Origin: a virus
Taxonomy: Duplodnaviria > Caudoviricetes
DNA length: 38,111 nt
Virus record (IMG/VR): IMGVR_UViG_3300031841_003139
Location: 1-38,111 of that record
Strand: one strand, 5' to 3'
In this document: piece after piece, positions 20,087 to 38,111 of the stretch
Position numbering within the stretch: position 1 is the first letter of the stretch
Layout of the letters: each line of letters begins with the position of its first letter
Notes under the pieces: generated by a model
What the model was told of the DNA's origin: nothing
What the model saw: only the letters and a program-made list of their open reading frames with translations
Databases searched by the model: none
Made by a program: the position numbers and the translations under genes

Positions 20087-21532
20087 GTTGCCTCCTGTCA
20101 GTTCTGTTAACGCCCATACTGCCCAGTCTAATCTATTAGGTGATTTTTTAGCGGTTAACGGTACATATTCCATTATTTCATCCTCAAACAGATCTAACCC
20201 TTCGGCATGATGTACTTGATTTTCTTTGCTTTCGTTCTTCTCATACAATGCCGCTATCGGTTCGGCTCGGCTGAATTTAGATTTGCTGGCATGCACGTTA
20301 ATTATGCGCCCTTTAAATTTGGCGTTACGTAATAATTCTTCAACCATCTTGCCGCCTTGGTTAGTCTCAACGACAACGGCATCAGCCTCATGTCGATTAT
20401 ATGCTTCAATTATTGCCTGTACTGCATCGGCTGGTGACATTTTACGAGTATAGTCTCCGTCGACCGAATATTTATCGTTAGCATAACTGCTTGCTGCACC
20501 TATTCCCCACTCGTCGCTGTTTTCCTCATTGGTAGTTGCTGGGTCAACACCTATGACCGTCCGCTTTTTAGCCCATGGCAACGGCATTTTGCGAGCCATA
20601 GCGATCATTGATTCAGTCCATAGTGCCCCGTCAGCATCAAACTTCTTAGGTTCCTGTAGATACTGAGCGTTCCACGTTCTCTTATGGGACATTAGCGAAC
20701 CAAGATGTTTTTTAGAATGCTTTGCTTCCCATAACCAGCCGTCAGATAGGCCATGGTCTATTGGTATGCCGTGGGTGTTCTCTTGAGGATATTTCTTGGA
20801 ATTGTCTATTTTTACTGGCAAGTTCAAATGATGCCATTTCTCACCGCTGCCGCCCCTCAGTAAATGCCCGCTTAAATCTTTATAATGGATTCTTTGCATA
20901 ATGACAATTACAGGTACATCCTCATCAGCTAATCGGCTTTTGATTGTGTCGCTATAGTTATCATTAACAGCATCGCGAATATTGTCATATAAAGCGTCGC
21001 GTGGTTTTACCGGATCATCAATAATCAATGCGCCGGTAAATCGCCATGGTTGCCCTTCCGGCGTCATTAACCCAGCACGAAAACCCGTAACTTGCCCCAT
21101 CGTACTAGCTGCGTAAACACCGCCTCCGTATTGGTTCCACCACATGTGTTTAGAGTCAGCATCATCGCGGGGCTTCATAGGCCACATGCTCTGATAGTCT
21201 TTCGACCTTACGATTGACCTAGCCGTTGATGAATTCAAAAGAGCCAATTTGTCAGAATAAGATAAATGCATGAATTTAGCATGTTCGTTAATCGCCAAAC
21301 CGCGCGCCATCAATGAAATACTGGCTATTTCTGTTTTTGTATAGCCCGGGGGAATATTGATAATTAGACGTTTTATTTCACCGTCTATAACTCGTTCGAG
21401 CGTTCTGTGAATGACAGGATGGTGACGACCGATGAGCATTTTCGCACCGGTTCTTTGTTTGAAAAAATACCGTGTGAAATAATCGTTTGATTCTTCACAC
21501 TCTAATTTGCGAGCCTCAACAATCGTCCGCAT
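20066..21532 (-). CDS. terL: Terminase large subunit
   Basis: Walker A IINIPPGYTKT, Walker B LIIDD, IMQRIH..DL.G, AQYLQEP; RNase H-like nuclease motifs GVDPA and VETNQGG. Confidence 0.95.
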   Translation of the reverse strand: MRTIVEARKLECEESNDYFTRYFFKQRTGAKMLIGRHHPVIHRTLERVIDGEIKRLIINIPPGYTKTEIASISLMARGLAINEHAKFMHLSYSDKLALLNSSTARSIVRSKDYQSMWPMKPRDDADSKHMWWNQYGGGVYAASTMGQVTGFRAGLMTPEGQPWRFTGALIIDDPVKPRDALYDNIRDAVNDNYSDTIKSRLADEDVPVIVIMQRIHYKDLSGHLLRGGSGEKWHHLNLPVKIDNSKKYPQENTHGIPIDHGLSDGWLWEAKHSKKHLGSLMSHKRTWNAQYLQEPKKFDADGALWTESMIAMARKMPLPWAKKRTVIGVDPATTNEENSDEWGIGAASSYANDKYSVDGDYTRKMSPADAVQAIIEAYNRHEADAVVVETNQGGKMVEELLRNAKFKGRIINVHASKSKFSRAEPIAALYEKNESKENQVHHAEGLDLFEDEIMEYVPLTAKKSPNRLDWAVWALTELTGGNLQAGGF

Positions 21533-21998
21533 CGAGCATTTCCTGACGTGCCTGTTTGTATTGTTCTTTCGTCAAAACTCGATGTTCAAACGCGCCACCG
21601 TTCGCACCGGTTATTTCTTTTTTCTGTGCCGCTAGATGACCGTCCATTTTGTTCAACTCGACTATTGCTGCTATTGCTGCTTTCACATCACCGGTGATGT
21701 GATGTTTATCGGTTTTCGGCGAATGCATTATTTCTAGCGATTTTTCGATAATCGTTTTCAACCATTGCTTTTTCTGCGCGACGCTCACAGAAATCAATTC
21801 TGTAGCAGCAACTTGAATTTCATATAATCTGAGGGCTATGTGCGGGCGTTTTAAAATCTTCTGCGCTTCCGTAGCGTTTAGCTGAGGACTCATATCAGAG
21901 TATTCCGCATACAGGTAGGCCGCTGTTGGCTTTCCATGAATAGAATAATGCTCAACGAATTTCTGTTCTTGTTCTGTTAGGTGTAGTTTATTGCTCAT
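21516..21998 (-). CDS. terS: Terminase small subunit
   Basis: LTEQEQKFVEHY...AY..A.YS N-terminal HTH pattern; EITGANGGA C-terminal motif; overlaps the terL start. Confidence 0.85.
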   Translation of the reverse strand: MSNKLHLTEQEQKFVEHYSIHGKPTAAYLYAEYSDMSPQLNATEAQKILKRPHIALRLYEIQVAATELISVSVAQKKQWLKTIIEKSLEIMHSPKTDKHHITGDVKAAIAAIVELNKMDGHLAAQKKEITGANGGAFEHRVLTKEQYKQARQEMLDADDC

Positions 21999-22007
21999 AG
22001 TCCCGAG

Positions 22008-22037
22008 ATTATAGCTAATAGCCTTTAGTCAGAGCAA
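22008..22037 (-). promoter_or_regulatory. Sigma70-like promoter for terS
   Basis: TTGCTC-N18-TATAAT; the -10 ends 9 nt before the terS ATG. Confidence 0.45.
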
Positions 22038-22046
22038 TTAAAATTT

Positions 22047-22372
22047 GTTTGTCTACTTATCAAAAAGCCTACAGGCTAGGTGTTGCGGGGCTTCCACGGG
22101 TTTCTGTCTAGTTTAATGCCTAGTTGTAAATGTAAGTAGACAAACGTAAGTTGCTGATAACTAAAGTCTTTTATACTATCTTGTCTACTTGTCTACTTAT
22201 AAATAAGTCTATTAGTAAATAAATAAAATAATAATAGTAATAAATAATAGTATATCTATATAAGAAGTCGGAAATAACTAGACAAGTAGGCAAACGGCGC
22301 TGTATGTTGTATCTGGTAAGGGATTGCGCGTGTCTACTACTTAGATGTCTAGTAGATCGCGCAAGTAGGCAA
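22047..22372. repeat. Iteron-like TTGTCTACTT repeats in both orientations around an AT-rich core (putative origin or packaging site)
   Basis: Copies at 22049, 22181 and 22189 (forward) and 22134, 22276, 22284 and 22363 (inverted), plus variants; core 22199-22262 is almost pure A/T. Confidence 0.8.
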
Positions 22373-22373
22373 G

Positions 22374-22619
22374 TTAAACTAAATCGTTAGCGGCAGTTTC
22401 CACAGCCTCTTTAATGTCGTTAAATGTTAATTCGTCAAAACAGGCTTTTGCTATTTCAAAACTTTTAAACCCGTCAACAGTCAAATCAATAAATTTCCCA
22501 TCGGCTATAAAGCTTATGACGATGCTATAGCGATTACACGATTTACCAATTCTCGTTAAAACCTGACCGAATGGTGCAACGTGGTAAACAACGCAAAAAT
22601 TACTCATCGTCGCTCTCAC
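22374..22619 (-). CDS. Hypothetical protein
   Basis: Last ORF of the accessory operon; overlaps the upstream ORF. Confidence 0.55.
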   Translation of the reverse strand: MRATMSNFCVVYHVAPFGQVLTRIGKSCNRYSIVISFIADGKFIDLTVDGFKSFEIAKACFDELTFNDIKEAVETAANDLV

Positions 22620-22809
22620 AGGTTAAAATAACTCTTTTTAATTCTCGTTTATATTTGGGTTTGTAGTCGCGCACTTCGACCGTTCTTGACCCGTGGATTT
22701 GATAACAATGATCTATTTGCTGCATGATCTGTTTATGCTCTCTATAAGTACCGTCACTAAGTGCTATTATAAATGCAATCGTTATTATAAAATAAAATGG
22801 TTTGTCCAT
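22600..22809 (-). CDS. Hypothetical protein with N-terminal hydrophobic segment
   Basis: GAGG SD; FYFIITIAFIIALS. Confidence 0.6.
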   Translation of the reverse strand: MDKPFYFIITIAFIIALSDGTYREHKQIMQQIDHCYQIHGSRTVEVRDYKPKYKRELKRVILTCESDDE

Positions 22810-22880
22810 AATGTTAAACCCTCGTTAATCGTTGTCTGAAAGGAAAGGTTGCACCGCTATATCAAAATCACCAGTGATGG

Positions 22881-23219
22881 CTACTGGCTCGAATAAAACT
22901 TCTTGAGCATCTTTGTAAGCATATAATACCTTTCACCAATGTGACGCCTACCTTCCTCACTACGGCTCATAGCATCAATTATCTCGCTCTTAGGTACTGA
23001 CTCGACTAACGCGTCATTACTGCGAGTTAAAGCCATGGTACATTGCCCTAATAATCTAGTTTGACTTTCAAGGTTTATTTGAGTCATACCCAAATCATAA
23101 TTAGCTTGGGCTAATTGTTTTTCGAGTTCTTTGTAATCTTCATAACTCACAAAATCACCATCGGAAGACTTAACAACGCCGTAATGCTCATCAAAATCCA
23201 GTCTAGTAAAATTAGCCAT
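22881..23219 (-). CDS. Hypothetical protein (mosaic)
   Basis: TAATG coupling; DGDFVSYEDY then coiled coil; shares SVPKSEI with the upstream gene. Confidence 0.7.
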   Translation of the reverse strand: MANFTRLDFDEHYGVVKSSDGDFVSYEDYKELEKQLAQANYDLGMTQINLESQTRLLGQCTMALTRSNDALVESVPKSEIIDAMSRSEEGRRHIGERYYMLTKMLKKFYSSQ

Positions 23220-23542
23220 TATTCGCTTTCTCCTGTGATAATATTGTTAAGGTCTTTGATAGCTACCTCAAGGTCAATCTCGCTGTCACTAAATGAATAC
23301 AAAACCCCAGAATACCTATTGATTAGTTTTTCAATCTCGCTCTTAGGTACTGACCCAGTTAACCGCTTTTCGAGTTCTTGGAATCTTTTTTTGATGGCTT
23401 GAAAGGTTTTTTCTGCTTTACCATCAATGGTGTCATGACTTCGCCCTTCAACGCCTTCTTGATAAGCAGTATTCCCATAGTCGAACAGCAACTCGTCTAA
23501 ACTTTTAACATCACTTACTTGCTCTTGCGTTAGGTTATTCAT
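23219..23542 (-). CDS. Hypothetical protein (MNNLTQEQ start)
   Basis: GGAG SD; overlaps the upstream stop. Confidence 0.7.
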   Translation of the reverse strand: MNNLTQEQVSDVKSLDELLFDYGNTAYQEGVEGRSHDTIDGKAEKTFQAIKKRFQELEKRLTGSVPKSEIEKLINRYSGVLYSFSDSEIDLEVAIKDLNNIITGESE

Positions 23543-24005
23543 TATTAGCTTTCTCCTGTAGTACTAGAAATAGACATTCAGACAACGCCCTCTGCGGCGA
23601 TTTAACAGTTTTAAAATCACTATCAAAAGTGTGAACCTCAAGTTCAAAATAACTCACGGTCAGCCCTGCTTCCGAGTATTCTTGCTCTAATTGCAGTTCA
23701 ACAACCAAAGGCATTAAATCATTCCAGTTGTTGCAGTAGTCAGGCAAATCAATATAATCACCACCAGCCGTTAAACACCTATTCTGACCAACGTAATAAA
23801 ATGCAAAAAATCTAGCTACCCTTTTGTTGAGGTCTTTATCACTCAACTCACTCACTTGCTCTTGTGTTAGTTTTGGCTGGACCTTGGTAAGCTTGTCATT
23901 CATTTCGCATTTAGCACACCAACCACCAGCAAAACCATTAGTGCGCCTTCTCCCAATATGCCCGCAATGCCCGCACTTATATTGCTCTTGTGTTAGGTTA
24001 TTCAT
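23535..24005 (-). CDS. Zn-ribbon fused to NinX/DUF2591-like domain
   Basis: CGHC...CAKC, then LSD.DLN..VA, DYCNNWNDLMPLV and PQRALSECLF, recalling the NinX-family pattern. Confidence 0.6.
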   Translation of the reverse strand: MNNLTQEQYKCGHCGHIGRRRTNGFAGGWCAKCEMNDKLTKVQPKLTQEQVSELSDKDLNKRVARFFAFYYVGQNRCLTAGGDYIDLPDYCNNWNDLMPLVVELQLEQEYSEAGLTVSYFELEVHTFDSDFKTVKSPQRALSECLFLVLQEKANNE

Positions 24006-24201
24006 TATTCAAACTACCTTCTGCAACTAATTGCACCTCAGAGCATCCAAACCCTTCATCGGTAGGCAAATTGTTTAACTCAATGATGTTGCCCATAGCC
24101 CTACGGCCGCAATCTTCCTCACACTTGCAAATATCCATACTCACAAAAATTGGCGCGTCAGGCGCTTCTAACATTCTTTTTGCTAACTCATGACTATTCA
24201 T
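23998..24201 (-). CDS. Hypothetical protein
   Basis: ATGA overlap; MNSHELAKRMLEAPD. Confidence 0.65.
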   Translation of the reverse strand: MNSHELAKRMLEAPDAPIFVSMDICKCEEDCGRRAMGNIIELNNLPTDEGFGCSEVQLVAEGSLNNE

Positions 24202-24464
24202 TGCTCGCTACCTTCCTTATGGCTGGTTAAAGATTCGGCTTCTAACAGCTTGTCAATTATTCTTTTTGCTTCATCAACCCAGCCATCACCAAATTTTTCA
24301 AGCAAATCACTCGCCCAATGGATGAAAACAGCTTGCTCATATTCCGCCTTGTTTTCTTTATCTTCATAAATCGAATGTTTTATCAGTAGTTTTGCAATAG
24401 GTGCGCATGCAAAATTTGGCTTGCCTAGTATTGAAATTTGATTATTAGATAGCTCAATCATCAT
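24198..24464 (-). CDS. Cassette gene, phage hypothetical (LGKPNFACAPIA...EQAVFIHW)
   Basis: Starts at the ATGATG of the 21-bp linker. Confidence 0.75.
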   Translation of the reverse strand: MMIELSNNQISILGKPNFACAPIAKLLIKHSIYEDKENKAEYEQAVFIHWASDLLEKFGDGWVDEAKRIIDKLLEAESLTSHKEGSEQ

Positions 24465-24481
24465 CTATTCCTTATGGTTGG

Positions 24482-24670
24482 CTAACTGTTCCACTTACTT
24501 TGGGGTGTGTTTTGAAGCTGAACTTCTTTGTAGTATTTTTTAGCCATTTGCAAGCAGCCTTCAATATGATCACGATAGATATAGCTTTCAGGCGCATTTT
24601 TTCTAAGCCACTCAATATCTTCATCTACCATTTTGTCGAAGGTTGCAGAATTAACAGGCATACTCATCAT
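24482..24670 (-). CDS. Cassette gene, hypothetical 62 aa
   Basis: Starts in the linker; stop lies just before the next linker. Confidence 0.75.
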   Translation of the reverse strand: MMSMPVNSATFDKMVDEDIEWLRKNAPESYIYRDHIEGCLQMAKKYYKEVQLQNTPQSKWNS

Positions 24671-24683
24671 CTATTCCTTATGG

Positions 24684-24893
24684 TTAAATTTCTTCGACAT
24701 AGAGCCGGAGTTGAACCCTGTATCGTTTAGGGTTTTTCATATAACGTTTAGCCTGCTCTAAGTCGGAAGGTGTTCCCCCATCGCTGTGATAGTTCAAGAG
24801 ATCTATAAGCGCAGGCATTGGTATAAATTCCGGTTCACCGTCGTAGATAGCGGCTTGCTCTACTGCTACAATTAAGCTTTCATCATTCATCAT
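24684..24893 (-). CDS. Cassette gene, hypothetical 69 aa
   Basis: Starts in the linker; its TAA overlaps the first AA of the next linker. Confidence 0.75.
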   Translation of the reverse strand: MMNDESLIVAVEQAAIYDGEPEFIPMPALIDLLNYHSDGGTPSDLEQAKRYMKNPKRYRVQLRLYVEEI

Positions 24894-24900
24894 CTATTCC

Positions 24901-25032
24901 TTATCCAAAGGTTACGCTGACATTCTTAATCAGCCATATCAAAAGCTCTATGACCGCCCACCCTATAACCGCAGAAAGAAGAATGGCTATTACCACTAAT
25001 GGTTTAAAACTAAATCTTATCGGTCCCATCAT
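24901..25032 (-). CDS. Cassette gene, 43-aa single-TM peptide (absent from ORF track)
   Basis: MMGPIRFSFKPLVVIAILLSAVIGWAVIELLIWLIKNVSVTFG*; ends at the linker TAA. Confidence 0.75.
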   Translation of the reverse strand: MMGPIRFSFKPLVVIAILLSAVIGWAVIELLIWLIKNVSVTFG

Positions 25033-25260
25033 CTATTCCTTATGGTTAATATTGCTTGTTTCGGTAAATGCAAAATGGAGCATATTGATACCAACAACGA
25101 CGTTGTTTACATTTTCATTGCCAACAACTTTTAGGTCAAAAGAGTCGTTATTTATCCCGTCGATAGTGAATATCGTACCAGTGGGCAGCGTTATGGATTC
25201 TTTGGCGTTAGAGTCGTACGCATAATTTACAGGATATTTGCATGTGTAAAATTTCATCAT
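25033..25260 (-). CDS. Cassette gene, hypothetical 75 aa
   Basis: Starts in the linker; ends ...NHKE* on the linker TAG. Confidence 0.75.
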   Translation of the reverse strand: MMKFYTCKYPVNYAYDSNAKESITLPTGTIFTIDGINNDSFDLKVVGNENVNNVVVGINMLHFAFTETSNINHKE

Positions 25261-25427
25261 CTATTCCTTATGGTTAAATAAATAGCCGGTATCAAAAAAA
25301 CTACTATTGCAATCCAATTAATAGGCCACCACCAAACAAACCATCGTTTAGTTAACAACCTATTACCAATATACAAAGGGATTCCGTCATAGCGCATTAA
25401 GGTTCCGTACTTTTCAAATTTATACAT
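25257..25427 (-). CDS. 56-aa Trp-rich membrane peptide (absent from ORF track)
   Basis: MYKFEKYGTLMRYDGIPLYIGNRLLTKRWFVWWWPINWIAIVVFLIPAIYLTIRNR*; AGGGGG SD; ends on the linker TGA. Confidence 0.7.
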   Translation of the reverse strand: MYKFEKYGTLMRYDGIPLYIGNRLLTKRWFVWWWPINWIAIVVFLIPAIYLTIRNR

Positions 25428-25430
25428 CAG

Positions 25431-25742
25431 TCAACCCCCTACGTGGTCAAAAATTCGCTTAAGCGCTTCTAGCGTTAGTATTTTTTCCATTCTGATCCCA
25501 AGGCTTTTAGATAACCCGTGGTCAGTCCCGTGAGTGTCCACATAGCCGCAATAATAACCCAAAGCATAAAACCTAAAGTCGTGCGCTATTTGCTCCAAAT
25601 CTTCTATTGATTCAGGGTCACCCAAAACTTGCTTTATTTCTAGCAGGTCGTTAGCGGTTTGATCGATTATGGTTGATCTTAACGCGTCCATTTCTTTATT
25701 TAGAAATCTGTCAAAATTGATATTTTTCGCAGCATTAGCCAT
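25431..25742 (-). CDS. Hypothetical protein
   Basis: Start lies within the 29-bp junction repeat (ACAGGT SD-like). Confidence 0.7.
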   Translation of the reverse strand: MANAAKNINFDRFLNKEMDALRSTIIDQTANDLLEIKQVLGDPESIEDLEQIAHDFRFYALGYYCGYVDTHGTDHGLSKSLGIRMEKILTLEALKRIFDHVGG

Positions 25743-25745
25743 TTG

Positions 25746-26042
25746 TTATTTACCTGTATTGTTAGCTTCGTAAGTGTCGTTACCATCCGGCATGTGAGTG
25801 CATATAATCAAGCCTTCCGACTCCAATTCTGAAAGAATAGTATGCTTTCTTAAATGGCTTATTTCTCCACCAAAATACAAACCTTTCTCTAACATTGGGC
25901 ATCTGCGACCTTTCAACCATTTTAAAAAATACTTTTTTCCTTCCTCGACACCCTTGTCAAAACGATCACGATCTACAACTTTGTCGTATTTTTGCATTTT
26001 ATCAGAAGCGTATTTGAATAAATTTTCTCTTACACTAGCCAT
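25746..26042 (-). CDS. Hypothetical protein (possible winged-helix C-terminus)
   Basis: First gene after the promoter at 26077-26105; LSELESEGLI motif. Confidence 0.65.
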   Translation of the reverse strand: MASVRENLFKYASDKMQKYDKVVDRDRFDKGVEEGKKYFLKWLKGRRCPMLEKGLYFGGEISHLRKHTILSELESEGLIICTHMPDGNDTYEANNTGK

Positions 26043-26069
26043 TTGTTATTTGCCTGTTTTGTTAACCGT

Positions 26070-26105
26070 TAAAATAATTATAATAAAACTATTTTAATAT
26101 TGCAA
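26070..26105 (-). promoter_or_regulatory. Strong sigma70-like promoter, copy 1
   Basis: TTGCAA-N17-TATAAT; 33/36 identical to 29192-29227. Confidence 0.8.
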
Positions 26106-26116
26106 GCACTTTAGAC

Positions 26117-26142
26117 AAAAAAAACCGCTAATTAAAGCGGTT
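26117..26142 (-). terminator. Intrinsic terminator
   Basis: AACCGCT-TTAATT-AGCGGTT continuing into a run of 8 T. Confidence 0.85.
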
Positions 26143-26169
26143 AATAACTACAGACACAGGAGTATTTAA

Positions 26170-26448
26170 TTAGGGGTGTTTTGTTTCTAGGCGATCTAGG
26201 CGTTTACTGTCGTTAATTAGCTGATATTCTAACCTGATGTCATTTTCTTTTAGTTGATAAATCGACTCGTTGGTTTTTTTAAGTTCGATCACAATTGAGG
26301 ACATAGCTTGATTAAGTGATTTAACCTCGTTTTTAAACGAGTCAACCTCGCCCTTGAGTACGCCCCAACTAAAGGCGATAAACATAACGTGCGCTAAAAT
26401 AGTGACTATGACGGGGATATAAGCCGTTACCCTTGACGGCTCAGACAT
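26170..26448 (-). CDS. Single-TM coiled-coil protein
   Basis: YIPVIVTILAHVMFIAFSWG then heptad repeats. Confidence 0.7.
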   Translation of the reverse strand: MSEPSRVTAYIPVIVTILAHVMFIAFSWGVLKGEVDSFKNEVKSLNQAMSSIVIELKKTNESIYQLKENDIRLEYQLINDSKRLDRLETKHP

Positions 26449-26626
26449 TACTAGTTACTTTAGCAAAAAAACAGTGCATATCCGAAACATACTTTTCTTG
26501 TCGTTCAATAAGACGTTTAGCCAGATCGGGATCTTTTTCTATCTGCTCGGCTATTTCAGCAGACGTTAACGAAGCGTTCGCCGCCTCATTACCACATATA
26601 ATAATCTTACATCTCGTTGCGCTCAT
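26441..26626 (-). CDS. Hypothetical protein
   Basis: Overlaps both neighbours; GGAG-like SD. Confidence 0.55.
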   Translation of the reverse strand: MSATRCKIIICGNEAANASLTSAEIAEQIEKDPDLAKRLIERQEKYVSDMHCFFAKVTSNV

Positions 26627-26891
26627 CGTCTCGTCTCATTTTGTCGGGGTGTGTAGCCCCTGTGGTAGAATCGCCGACCTTTTTAACGCCTTCTCTAATT
26701 AAAATAGCGTTTTGGTCTTGAACGTGCATCTGTAAAAGCCTAATCTCGGTTTTGGTTTCCTTAAAAGTATCTCGCAATGAGATTAGGCTAATTGTGACCC
26801 ACATTAACAGCAAAATAGCTGTTACTAATAGTAACACCAGCGTACCTTTACCCTCACCGCTGATCCTGATCACAATATTCCTTTGTCCCAT
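26607..26891 (-). CDS. Single-TM coiled-coil protein
   Basis: LVLLLVTAILLLMWVTISLISL then a helical segment. Confidence 0.65.
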   Translation of the reverse strand: MGQRNIVIRISGEGKGTLVLLLVTAILLLMWVTISLISLRDTFKETKTEIRLLQMHVQDQNAILIREGVKKVGDSTTGATHPDKMRRDDERNEM

Positions 26892-26999: not shown

Positions 27000-27404
27000 T
27001 TAGGCGATATTCCGCCTATTTTTATCGACAATTATTTTGCAGGTCTTGGCTTTTTTACACTTCAATTTAGCATAAGTACCGCCTGCTGTTTTCTTTTTCT
27101 TGTAGATACACTTCGAGCCGTTTTTAGTGCAAATTTTACAATGAGTGCCTGAGCCGGAACAGTCCCAAATATATTTTGCTACCTTAACATCAGGTGTCGG
27201 CATATCTAAAAAGTTCGACTTCTTTTGCTTCTTGACGATATGACATCGACCATTCATATCACAGACAACACAATGCGTTTTACCACACTCCATATAGGAT
27301 TTTGTGAACTCCGCCACCGGATCACTAACCGCCATAGCTGGTATTGCAAAAACCGCAAGCATCACGGTTAAACAGACCCAAATTTTACTGAATTGTTTTT
27401 TCAT
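27000..27404 (-). CDS. Exported Cys-rich, Lys-rich small protein
   Basis: AAGGA SD; signal peptide ending AIPAMA|VS; two repeats C..(2-4)THC..C..NG.(.)C...KK.KK. Confidence 0.75.
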   Translation of the reverse strand: MKKQFSKIWVCLTVMLAVFAIPAMAVSDPVAEFTKSYMECGKTHCVVCDMNGRCHIVKKQKKSNFLDMPTPDVKVAKYIWDCSGSGTHCKICTKNGSKCIYKKKKTAGGTYAKLKCKKAKTCKIIVDKNRRNIA

Positions 27405-29165: not shown

Positions 29166-29191
29166 CAAATCGCACCTTTTTCTGTAGTCAG

Positions 29192-29227
29192 TAAAATAAT
29201 TATACTAAAACTATTTTAATTGTGCAA
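29192..29227 (-). promoter_or_regulatory. Strong sigma70-like promoter, copy 2, overlapping the primase stop codon
   Basis: TTGCAC-N17-TATAAT. Confidence 0.8.
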
Positions 29228-31634
29228 CCCCTTGATGATAATTATTTTCAGCCTCATAACCTTGGTCGCGCATATATTGGTTAGTGGCTTGTGTCGCATC
29301 TGCTATTTGAGATTGAATGCTACCCGATTTGACATAAAGCACTGAGCGGTTGTTGCTTTCCTGCATGATAGCCCTAGTAGCTCGCCCTTGGTTTGTTAGT
29401 GCGGGGTGCTTAATGTAACCCTCTTGTTTTAAATAAATAGCCAGCATCTTACCACTAGGCGGCTTAATACCGTATTCGTTTTGTAATATTGTTCTGAGCG
29501 CTTGAACCGATAACCAGCTTTTTAAAGTACCTGCTTTGCCGCTGCTGATAGCCTCGCTAACGGCTTGATGTGGTGCGCTTTTGGATTCGTTGATAGCTTC
29601 TAAAAAACTGCTCGTTATAGGGGCTTTATCAGCGAGTGTTGCAGGGTTAAATTCGTCGGGGATCTTATAGGTGTCTAAAAAATGTGCGGTCTTAGCCCAT
29701 CCATCTTGATTGTAAAACCAGTCAAACAAGTTGCTAAAATACTTACCGCCCCTTTGCATATCGTTTAAGGCTAGATCCTCAGTTTCTTGTTGTGCACAAA
29801 ACAAAATAGCAAACCGGCGAGTATGATCAGTAACTTTCACAGCGTCCTTGTAATTGCTCATTAGTAGCCAATTAATGCACGTTTTAATCGTTAACTGATC
29901 AACGCCTTTTGCTTGGGTTTGTATTCTTGAATTACCAATGAAACGTTTTAACGCTGCCTCTGCTTGGTTTCTTGATCCGGTTTTAATTTCCTCTAATACA
30001 GCTAGCCTGTGATTTTTAATATAACTGTTAAATTTACCGCCGCTGTTACAAAAATCCTCGGGATCAACATCTTCAACGTGATCGTCACCGATACAGTAGG
30101 TCAGCACTCTAGCAATTAAACTTTTGCCGTTACCTTCAACACCTTGGATGAACGGCGACCACAGAAACTTTTTACCGGAATACTGGACGAACGCCGCCAT
30201 CCAGCTAATTAGTATTTCAGCGTCTTGGTCGTTAGGTAACATAATTTTTATGTGATTGTAAAACGGGCTAGCATCGCCCTCGACCCGCAAGCCGTCTTGA
30301 TTGACATATTCATTAACATAGCTACGGCCGCTATCCTCGAACACTGTGCCGAACTCATATTCAGGTCGATAAGCCCTGTCGTAAACTTCCGCGCGCGTCA
30401 TATCTGGCGCTGTTACGTAAGCTTTCCACGCTTCTTTTATTGGCTTGCCGCCGAACGCCTCTAAAAATTCAACGGTCGAATACATGTTGTTATATTCGGT
30501 TTGACCCCTGACAACGCCGTCAGGACAAAAAACCTTACTGTTACACGTCATAAAATAATGACCTGCAAAAAAATTAGGCCGTTCCTCATAAGCAAGCATT
30601 CTCGATCCACCATTAGCTTTGACAGTGGTGTCGTGGACTATGTGCTGTTCTGGTTTCCACTCTTGCCTTGCCGCCTCTTTAGCGGCTATTTGTGACCCGT
30701 AGACGTCACGACAGCCGCGCACAGCGTTTAATATGGTGTCGCGTCTATAATCCTTGCGGTTTTCCCATTTGTCACGCACAAGGCCGGATTGACTCATTAA
30801 TCGCTCGATACGTTCGCAATCTTTACCCGTCCAAAACGCTAGGTGATTACATAAAGCCTGATCCGCGCTGGATCGATCAAAATCATCTTCGATGTTGGTT
30901 GGTGGGAAAACCACACCTAATTTTTCAACGTTACAATCCCATAAATCGGCGGCGCTAACTTTAGTGCCAAATACTTGAGCGGCGCTGGTTGATTCTTTCA
31001 TTCTTTTGATCAAGGCTTTATCGGTTTTTAGCGGTTTACTCTCGGGTACTGGTTCCGTTGTCCATTCTAGCGTGTTGTCGATTGTTTTAGGCGGGAAATA
31101 GTAATTAACAAACGACGGTAACAAGTGGCTAGCGTCAAAGCTGGCATCACCCATAGCGCCGATACCGGTTAAAGCAACAAAGCGATCACTCGTGTAAAAC
31201 TCTAAGCCTAATGGTATATTTTTTTTACGGTGATCAGCGTGGTAACCTGTGCCTGTACCGAAAATATGCAACCCCTTTCCGCTATGGCTAATTTCCACGG
31301 CGCAACCAGCAAAATAATTAACGAAGGATTGAGCGTCATTTGTCCAGCTTCCATCGTCGTTGGTGCAATTATCAATGTCAAAAAACCAAAACGGATCGTT
31401 ATTGGTAAACACAAAGCCAACACCAAAAGTTCGACCAAGGTTATTAGCAATTGCTAAAGCGTCAGCCGCGCTAAACCATATTTTAGGGTCATGCGCGTTA
31501 TGTGAATATAAAGTGTTTGGGTCTAATGTTATTTTATCAAATTTGTTCGGGTTTTTCTTATTAGGTACTGCCTGCCAAATTACAAACTGGTTATAGTTTG
31601 CAAGCGGCATCAAAGCCGTTGGTATTTGATTCAT
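29211..31634 (-). CDS. Primase-polymerase/SF3 helicase fusion (NrS-1 polymerase-like)
   Basis: AEP motifs FFDID, EISHSGKGLHIF and EFY...RFVALTG; helical-bundle DRSSADQALCNHLAFWTG...SGL.RDKW; P-loop GVEGNGKS, LEE and MSN. Confidence 0.88.
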   Translation of the reverse strand: MNQIPTALMPLANYNQFVIWQAVPNKKNPNKFDKITLDPNTLYSHNAHDPKIWFSAADALAIANNLGRTFGVGFVFTNNDPFWFFDIDNCTNDDGSWTNDAQSFVNYFAGCAVEISHSGKGLHIFGTGTGYHADHRKKNIPLGLEFYTSDRFVALTGIGAMGDASFDASHLLPSFVNYYFPPKTIDNTLEWTTEPVPESKPLKTDKALIKRMKESTSAAQVFGTKVSAADLWDCNVEKLGVVFPPTNIEDDFDRSSADQALCNHLAFWTGKDCERIERLMSQSGLVRDKWENRKDYRRDTILNAVRGCRDVYGSQIAAKEAARQEWKPEQHIVHDTTVKANGGSRMLAYEERPNFFAGHYFMTCNSKVFCPDGVVRGQTEYNNMYSTVEFLEAFGGKPIKEAWKAYVTAPDMTRAEVYDRAYRPEYEFGTVFEDSGRSYVNEYVNQDGLRVEGDASPFYNHIKIMLPNDQDAEILISWMAAFVQYSGKKFLWSPFIQGVEGNGKSLIARVLTYCIGDDHVEDVDPEDFCNSGGKFNSYIKNHRLAVLEEIKTGSRNQAEAALKRFIGNSRIQTQAKGVDQLTIKTCINWLLMSNYKDAVKVTDHTRRFAILFCAQQETEDLALNDMQRGGKYFSNLFDWFYNQDGWAKTAHFLDTYKIPDEFNPATLADKAPITSSFLEAINESKSAPHQAVSEAISSGKAGTLKSWLSVQALRTILQNEYGIKPPSGKMLAIYLKQEGYIKHPALTNQGRATRAIMQESNNRSVLYVKSGSIQSQIADATQATNQYMRDQGYEAENNYHQGVAQLK

Positions 31635-37469: not shown

Positions 37470-38111
37470 TATACGAAGATAAATACGTTACTGTCACGGG
37501 GATCGTCGTTTGGGACGGTTTAACTAATCCTGACACTAATGATAACGGAAAGCTAAAACATTCTTGTAAAATAGTTATCCATCCACAATCACCCGAGGCA
37601 CAAGAGGCGATGCAGCTAGCGACTAACGAGCTTAACAGCGGCGAGTTTAAAGGTGTATTACCTAACGGTGGCCGGTTCGCTCTTACTACTGCTGACGCCT
37701 CTGAGTTTAACGGAATGTTCCCTAATTATTATGTGATGAACGCCGGAACATATAACGGTTTACCGCAAGTTTTTGACGCTAATGGTGCGGTAATACCCGC
37801 AATGCAGTTGAACCAAATTTTATATGCTGGTGCACAAGTTGAATTGCTTGTTCATTTTTATTCCTATAACAATAAGTCTAAAGGTGTAGCAGCAGGTTTA
37901 GACGGTGTTAAAATCATCGACTCAACAACCCCTAGATTGCAGTTAGGCGGCGGCATTGATGCGTCTAAAATTCTAGGTGCTGGTGGCGGTGGTAGTCCAG
38001 TTAATCAACAGCAAATGCCGCAACAGCAAATGCCGCAACAGCAAATGCCGCAACAGCAAATGCCGCAACAGCAAATGCCGCAACAGCAAATGCCGCAACA
38101 GCAAATGCCGC
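37466..38111 (+). CDS. Partial single-stranded DNA-binding protein (DUF2815/gp2.5-like) with (QQQMP)n tail
   Basis: ATGA overlap; ...PQVFDANG...YAGAQV...FYSYNNKSKGVAAGLDGVKII..; position after the DUF2800-like gene is typical. Confidence 0.8.
   Translation, partial: MIYEDKYVTVTGIVVWDGLTNPDTNDNGKLKHSCKIVIHPQSPEAQEAMQLATNELNSGEFKGVLPNGGRFALTTADASEFNGMFPNYYVMNAGTYNGLPQVFDANGAVIPAMQLNQILYAGAQVELLVHFYSYNNKSKGVAAGLDGVKIIDSTTPRLQLGGGIDASKILGAGGGGSPVNQQQMPQQQMPQQQMPQQQMPQQQMPQQQMPQQQMP
38006..38111 (+). repeat. 15-bp perfect tandem repeat CAACAGCAAATGCCG x7, running off the window
   Basis: Read directly from the sequence. Confidence 0.97.

Follow-up and report, generated by a model that had tools for sequence, protein, structure and literature searches.

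A conserved stop, Shine-Dalgarno and start linker joins small genes in a marine siphovirus-type phage's variable accessory region and marks where they are gained, lost and reordered

The window analyzed here is the whole 38,111-nucleotide stretch of IMG/VR record IMGVR_UViG_3300031841_003139, a 38-kb tailed phage that encodes a terminase, portal, tape measure, primase, helicase and DUF2800 exonuclease. Its region from approximately 22630 to 26060 contains at least five families of short joint between genes (A to E). One of these is the 21-mer AACCATAAGGAATAGATGATG (linker A), which is present as four exact minus-strand copies; in 100 shuffles there were no matches at up to three mismatches. 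Linker A is a conserved gene-junction linker (stop, Shine-Dalgarno (SD), start) in the variable accessory region of this marine siphovirus-type phage. IMG/VR scans yielded seven further contigs in which the linker lies in array context, referred to below as G001 to G007. The six small cargo genes of the window and the copies of linker A between them are as follows.

25257..25427, minus strand: 56-aa cargo gene; one hydrophobic stretch; starts MY; missing in G001
25255..25275, minus strand: exact copy 1 of linker A; the linker TGA is the end of the 56-aa gene
25033..25260, minus strand: 75-aa cargo gene; predicted SH3-like beta fold (a lead only); 3' end 99% identical in G002
25027..25047, minus strand: exact copy 2 of linker A; the linker TAG is the end of the 75-aa gene
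24901..25032, minus strand: 43-aa membrane-type cargo gene; also in G002, G006 and G007
24888..24904, minus strand: 17-base copy of linker A; the linker TAA is the end of the 43-aa gene
24684..24893, minus strand: 69-aa cargo gene; one other cluster found (94%)
24665..24685, minus strand: exact copy 3 of linker A; the TAA of the upstream gene overlaps linker bases 1-2
24482..24670, minus strand: 62-aa cargo gene; six other clusters at 70-78% identity
24459..24479, minus strand: exact copy 4 of linker A; the upstream gene ends on its own TAG just 5' of the linker
24198..24464, minus strand: 88-aa helical cargo gene; 98% identical DNA in G004 and G006

The first-pass annotation of this DNA had reported the four exact 21-mers, the 17-base copy at 24904 and a variant joint at 24222, with start codons spaced 228, 139, 223 and 206 bp apart, and all of these positions and spacings were reproduced. 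It had also assigned one gene starting MM to each interval. The ORFs of 56, 75, 43, 69, 62 and 88 aa do lie where it put them, but the 56-aa gene has the MY start and no linker before it. The copy at 24222 had been taken for a decayed linker; it is rather a member of a second joint family, B, which has 11 copies in eight of the nine records that carry linker A.

We verified that the linker contains TAA (position 6), TAG (13) and TGA (17) in three different frames, and that all three are used in the window, by the 43-aa, 75-aa and 56-aa ORFs respectively; the 69-aa and 62-aa genes have stops of their own, located at the linker or immediately 5' of it. Stops in all three frames are uncommon, being present in 5 of 108 other SD-bearing gene starts and in approximately 1% of random spacers. 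Across 30 linker copies in nine records, the upstream gene ends at the linker TAG in 7 cases, at the TAA in 6 and at the TGA in 2; another 12 upstream genes end on a different stop at or near the linker, and 3 are unresolved. The earlier claim that any cassette would be terminated regardless of its frame is right in that the stops are real and uncommon, but 15 of the 30 upstream genes use them and joint B lacks them. Because of this half-usage and of a sister joint without a three-frame stop, a design for frame independence is unproven. In a G001 copy, one of the 3 without an assigned stop, the TAG has become CAG, and two cassettes are read as a single 138-aa protein, the second half of which is a stand-alone gene in G005, after ninG.

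The linker also supplies the start of the next gene. Standard SD-to-start spacing favours the second of its ATG codons, and two variant copies of the linker keep one ATG only, which together make the second ATG the likely real start. Conservation is centred on the SD and start and weakens 5' of AACC. All 30 copies have a single orientation (a reversed control pattern gave 0 matches), and among the records scanned no core gene was preceded by the linker.

The other joints, the flanks of the array and the elements upstream of it are listed here.

24198..24222, minus strand: joint B; shares CCATAAGGAA (the first 11-12 bases) with linker A; encodes an HKEGxEx tail; ATGA overlap
23982..24005, minus strand: joint C, copy 1 (coding start MNNLTQEQ); opens a block 99.7% identical to G007
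23519..23542, minus strand: joint C, copy 2
23540..23558, minus strand: joint D, copy 1 (gene end QEKANNE)
23217..23235, minus strand: joint D, copy 2
26033..26064, minus strand: joint E, copy 1 (32-base direct repeat at gene start)
25733..25764, minus strand: joint E, copy 2
25746..26042, minus strand: 98-aa gene between the E copies; missing in G001, which has one E copy
25431..25742, minus strand: 103-aa gene, common to G001 (95%); fixed left flank of the array
22628..25418, minus strand: variable region replaced in G001; 2,639 of the 4,620 window bases unshared with G001
26077..26105, minus strand: sigma70-like promoter, TTGCAA-17-TATAAT, 10/12; a consensus match only
26123..26142, minus strand: terminator-like hairpin, just upstream of the promoter-like site

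A further 268 of the 4,620 unshared bases belong to the E-bounded 98-aa gene. Joint C occurs in 12 copies in eight records and lies inside coding sequence, and many unrelated proteins thus start MNNLTQEQ(V); judged from their sequences, these are chimeric genes formed at a coding repeat.

From the promoter-like site and the hairpin it is 650 bases to the first cargo gene downstream. Because the region is not enriched in promoter-like sites over shuffles (15 versus 14.1), the promoter call rests on position. Neither a promoter-like site common to the linkers nor a terminator-like site on the coding strand of the array was found, and the single upstream sigma70-like site likely drives the whole array, as read from the sequence. 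The earlier description of the array as promoterless fits the individual cassettes, but the array as a whole stands behind this one site. The promoter-like element has near-copies (78%) at 29175-29233 and 26053-26111, each heading a block of small genes, and it is kept in G001.

To identify phages that carry the linker, we scanned several collections. A 17-mer scan of IMG/VR gave 27 stretches, of which 8 came from the seven array contigs and 19 were context-less single copies that we dropped as chance or unrelated; the extra matches of a 16-mer scan were context-less single copies only. From the metagenome scan (three stretches) we tentatively kept one, L054, whereas all six single matches of the genome scan were dropped, as were 3 of the 11 stretches from a scan with joint C as matches by chance. 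A search with the 103-aa flank gene yielded no further relative. The seven partner records derive from three dataset ids.

For 88% of the window there is a counterpart in G001 (L029), the main blocks being 95-98% identical; this genome carries eight linker copies, the largest number in any genome, and none of the six window cargo genes. All six of the others (G002-G007) carry the linker and cover 0-5% of the window. The terminase, head protein and primase of the window were each matched in one of the seven records, G001. Virion genes are of siphovirus type in G007 and of podovirus type in G005. Terminal repeats are present in both G001 and G007, and each is rated 100% complete. G002-G007 share a layout of an annealing gene (often with ssb), then the array, then ninB/ninG, and four arrays open with a joint that overlaps the stop codon of ssb or of the gene in the ssb position.

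These partners have features worth recording in their own right. G002-G007 have a lambdoid-like erf/recT-ssb-nin layout without a detected tyrosine or serine integrase, near-complete records included, and their virions are of both sipho- and podovirus type. The 74-kb record G006 (L042, L076) consists of two related phages end to end, each with its own array, which differ in their annealing protein (Rad52-type versus Erf). A second landing site (L030:3311-3517, L041) lies directly after the ninG terminator and holds cassettes of the G001 array (59/60-aa and 80-aa).

Comparison of the records bears out the earlier proposal that the linker is where genes are added, dropped or put into a new order. 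In addition to the turnover of cargo in G001, window cargo is found at 89-99% nucleotide identity with new neighbours in four of the six partners (G002, G004, G006 and G007). Across four genomes, three different genes lie upstream of the 43-aa gene and two downstream of it, and across three genomes the 88-aa gene has three different neighbours on either side; the 75-aa gene is followed by the 43-aa gene in the window and by an 87-aa gene in G002. The shared blocks that cover the six cargo genes end in joint A or B, in both genomes, at 11 of 11 scorable ends (one end at a contig edge was excluded). Over all pairs, after four edge ends were excluded, joints A-D make up 13% of the zones and contain 23 of 38 block ends, and the other 15 lie outside joints, mostly in the C-D zone; the corresponding binomial value of 1e-11 overstates the case, because pairwise ends are not independent events. 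Relatives therefore do not keep the same gene content and order, breakpoints do fall at the linker, and the linker does stand beside other genes: the same linker precedes 19 unrelated protein families, genes next to it are gained, lost, replaced and reordered, and the ends of shared blocks lie in linkers.

On this evidence, homology-driven exchange, which the first-pass annotation had put forward, is the best mechanism. We think it probable that the linker-flanked genes are exchanged by short-homology recombination at the conserved linker during co-infection, and not by an integrase; the recombination enzyme and the co-infection step are what we infer. The Erf-, RecT- or Rad52-type proteins of the partners, or the gp2.5-like SSB (which binds single-stranded DNA) and exonuclease of the window, would pair two linker copies, and whole genes would be swapped, added or dropped by a further crossover, located either in another linker or in one of joints B-E. 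Entry at the linker would provide a gene with a ribosome site and place it under the one promoter upstream, and translation of a gene that had lost its 3' end would be halted whatever the frame. Because of this any-frame stop and the supplied ribosome site, most recombinants would be translatable, and we propose that the spread of the linker would be favoured as a result.

Candidate enzymes were found in part of the set. Annealing families are present in four of the eight records (ERF in G002, G005 and G006, RecT in G007, Rad52 in G006), and no match to ERF, RecT, Rad52 or Sak4-type (AAA_24) proteins was obtained in the window or G001, the holders of the longest arrays. The window does encode an Enc34-type SSB, a family with a structure like that of T7 gp2.5 (extract of PMC5686142), and gp2.5 has been counted among the phage recombinases (extract of PMC2896510).

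The length of the linker is less favourable. Linker pairs with unrelated flanks are exactly identical over a median of 17 bases, mostly 17-22; 123 of 415 pairs reach 21 bases, 38 reach 23 and 1 reaches 31. Pairing minima are given as 23-27 bp for Red-beta and 31-34 bp for RecA (extract of PMC3945230), so most linker pairs fall below the efficient minimum, and exchange events may accordingly be rare or use longer pairs. Counting against the short-homology reading, then, are the short identity of the pairs, the lack of a match to these annealing families in the window and G001, the 15 of 38 ends outside joints and the use of linker stops by 15 of 30 upstream genes. Exact linker-to-linker deletions or circles were seen in none of the listed contigs, although contigs cannot exclude them.

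Several of the same observations suit a different explanation, in which the linker is mainly a translation signal, similar to the start-associated sequences (SAS) of mycobacteriophages or to the site of a translational regulator, and illegitimate recombination followed by selection for good starts collects breakpoints there. The conserved part is exactly the SD and start, fading 5' of AACC; most linker pairs are shorter than the published pairing minima (PMC3945230, in the part available); and SAS elements have the same anatomy (extract of PMC3203893). We nevertheless consider this explanation unlikely. The linker is at the break in both partners for the 23 of 38 ends, joints C and D bound shared blocks yet lie inside coding sequence, and no core gene has the linker. 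The 5' half of the linker, moreover, encodes the C-termini of unrelated proteins (NHKE tails), and none of the 14 distant homologues (41-59%) compared with the 88-aa gene has the linker. An MM start is absent in 40 of 41 non-self homologous proteins, although gene callers may drop the first Met. Because distant homologues have no linker and MM starts are missing, the linker was likely added when the gene entered the pool.

We also asked whether the gene orders could be, in part, assembly chimeras, made by an assembler walking between co-occurring phages that share cassettes. Contigs of the seawater run X1, possibly the source of the window, break at linkers and no single one reaches across the array; two phages are joined in record G006, and the datasets are few. 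Within X1, however, pieces of the window are found with 0 differences, and the window-unique pieces have a depth of 104-117, versus 110-130 for the flanks. The listed pieces read through four of the five linkers, with 7-20 bases of flank, and leave the 62-to-88 joint uncrossed. Alternative orders appear in single Logan contigs (a G006-type order in X3, 1,453 bases, and a G001-type array in X2, 16 kb), and in the complete genomes G001 and G007. Each alternative junction is far below read length, and chimeras themselves presuppose cassettes common to several phages. We therefore regard this explanation as very unlikely.

A dedicated site-specific recombinase acting on the 21-mer in the manner of an integron or shufflon, whether supplied by the host or unrecognised, would fit promoterless cassettes behind one promoter and a repeat that is often exact. 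It is highly improbable given the profile and folding results, which agree with the earlier statement that no such enzyme or attC-like palindrome is visible: tyrosine (PF00589) and serine (PF00239) recombinases were each found in 0 of 8 records, with controls positive in 14 of 14 and 12 of 14 genomes, and PF00589 in 0 of 5 near-complete records. The five junction regions fold no better than shuffles (z-scores -0.63 to 0.78), and 22000-26300 had no Rfam match. Block ends, furthermore, are spread over linker positions -2 to +26 and over several unrelated joint families. Finally, despite similar unit sizes and identical starts, there is next to no chance that the cargo genes are diverged tandem paralogues with the linker as a duplication remnant, since they are unrelated, as previously noted (best pair within the window E=1.0 by BLASTP and 0.41 by phmmer), their predicted folds differ (88-aa helical, 75-aa SH3-like) and their homologue families are separate.

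Linker or boundary sequences in lambdoid phages were reportedly proposed by Susskind and Botstein in 1978 and by Clark et al. in 2001. As described in extracts of PMC3029335 and PMC2839356, these are short conserved junction sequences thought to direct homologous exchange, and in the former source such sequences could not be found at most mosaic boundaries. Linker A resembles them in that a short conserved junction sequence is common to different phages (30 copies, nine records), in that exchanges end within the joint (11 of 11 cargo ends, 23 of 38 overall), and in that the partner arrays lie just upstream of ninB and ninG. In contrast to them, it is tandemly repeated between single small genes and spans unrelated virion and replication modules with no detected integrase.

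Two other phage repeats invite comparison. In the PeSL cassettes of T4-type phages the repeat contains a sigma70 promoter and a stem-loop, making each cassette its own transcription unit, and mini-circles have been demonstrated; the PeSL authors likewise draw the integron comparison (extract of PMC2839356; for the cassettes see also that of PMC4122927). Both repeats precede ORFans in a hypervariable region where indels and swaps occur at the repeat without a dedicated recombinase, but linker A is a translation-only element of 17-21 bases, with stops in three frames and without promoter or stem-loop. The SAS of cluster K mycobacteriophages extend across the right half of the genome, have a 13-bp consensus and were proposed to be translation signals, and the consulted part of the source makes no gene-exchange claim for them (PMC3203893). 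Like SAS, linker A is an asymmetric, SD-bearing repeat in one orientation at the starts of non-structural genes; unlike SAS, it shows no extended inverted repeat, and its sequence differs from the cluster K consensus as given in that extract. Gene flow between distant phages was already known (extract of PMC8136500).

The first-pass annotation had likened the array to an integron. An integron is a series of single-gene cassettes that lack promoters of their own, all face the same way and stand behind one promoter, with an inter-cassette repeat, the integrase IntI and attC sites. Here, single-gene cassettes with a repeat lie in one orientation, apparently promoterless, behind one sigma70-like consensus site. 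With no IntI-type tyrosine recombinase in the eight records, no attC-like hairpin and breakpoints that are not at one base, however, the array is not an integron. What is new is a minimal, translation-only joint that is repeated between single genes and common to phages with unrelated cores. We found no publication on a phage linker with three-frame stops in a search of titles and abstract openings, mostly without subscription journals.

The array likely illustrates, cleanly and in nature, the long-standing 'linker' idea of how phages evolve, and bears on a 45-year-old question, that is, whether mosaicism is guided by conserved linkers or arises from random joining followed by selection. In this case one can see the linker, the genes that were swapped and the breakpoints alike, and this between phages without a detectable common head, terminase or primase gene. 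A laboratory phage could carry rebuilt or mutated versions of so short a sequence as the 21-mer, so that its proposed roles in pairing and in frame-proof translation would be separable. The linker also points to 19 families of mini-proteins, recently mobile and uncharacterised, as candidates for functional screening.

As for the cargo itself, the membrane-type hydrophobic stretches of the 56-aa and 43-aa ORFs agree with the two membrane peptides noted earlier. The suggestion that the cargo serves host takeover or anti-defence received no support from any search. There was one weak, unnamed PHROGs match among the six genes and no Pfam match (0 of 6); PADLOC matched 0 of 17 proteins; and the Atlas matches were unnamed. 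For the 88-aa protein, modelled at pLDDT 90, Foldseek found nothing at E<=0.001 and VIA nothing at Z>=5; the best fold lead is an uncharacterised Caulobacter phage protein. Among cultured phages, 23000-26200 had no DNA match and the 88-aa protein matched two weak records only; the closest cultured matches are mostly gammaproteobacterial phages, at 35-64%. Substitutions in shared cargo are few, a count too small for judging selection. The most likely candidate role is the tuning of infection of a shared gammaproteobacterial host, and an anti-defence role is a guess. A bolder reading, which we find doubtful, would make the 21-base joint, a stop and restart of translation in any frame, a community-wide standard part that has spread across the sipho- and podovirus-type phages of one marine host because translation never fails in its recombinants and, with its four sister joints, an enzyme-free, integron-like library of counter-defence mini-genes moved as single-cassette circles by the annealing protein of any phage.

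We note several further features of the window. Three small overlapping ORFs lie at 26170-26891, and the stretch at approximately 26570-26800 is 71-77% identical in G002, G003, G005 and G006, where, unlike in the window, it is found shortly upstream of a likely lysis enzyme gene. A 134-aa ORF at 27000-27404 has a signal-peptide-like start and many paired cysteines, and no PHROG match. The region encoding the N-terminal part of the terminase (20568-21603) is replaced in G001, while the C-terminal part is 70% identical and the flanks are 96-98% identical. Positions 1-371 hold 66-base tandem repeats, more numerous in G001, and probably represent a gene for a repeat protein that runs off the contig end. 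At the other end, the Enc34-type SSB gene finishes, at 37991-38111 and up to the end of the contig, in exact 15-base tandem repeats that encode (QQQMP)n, and not the usual acidic tail.
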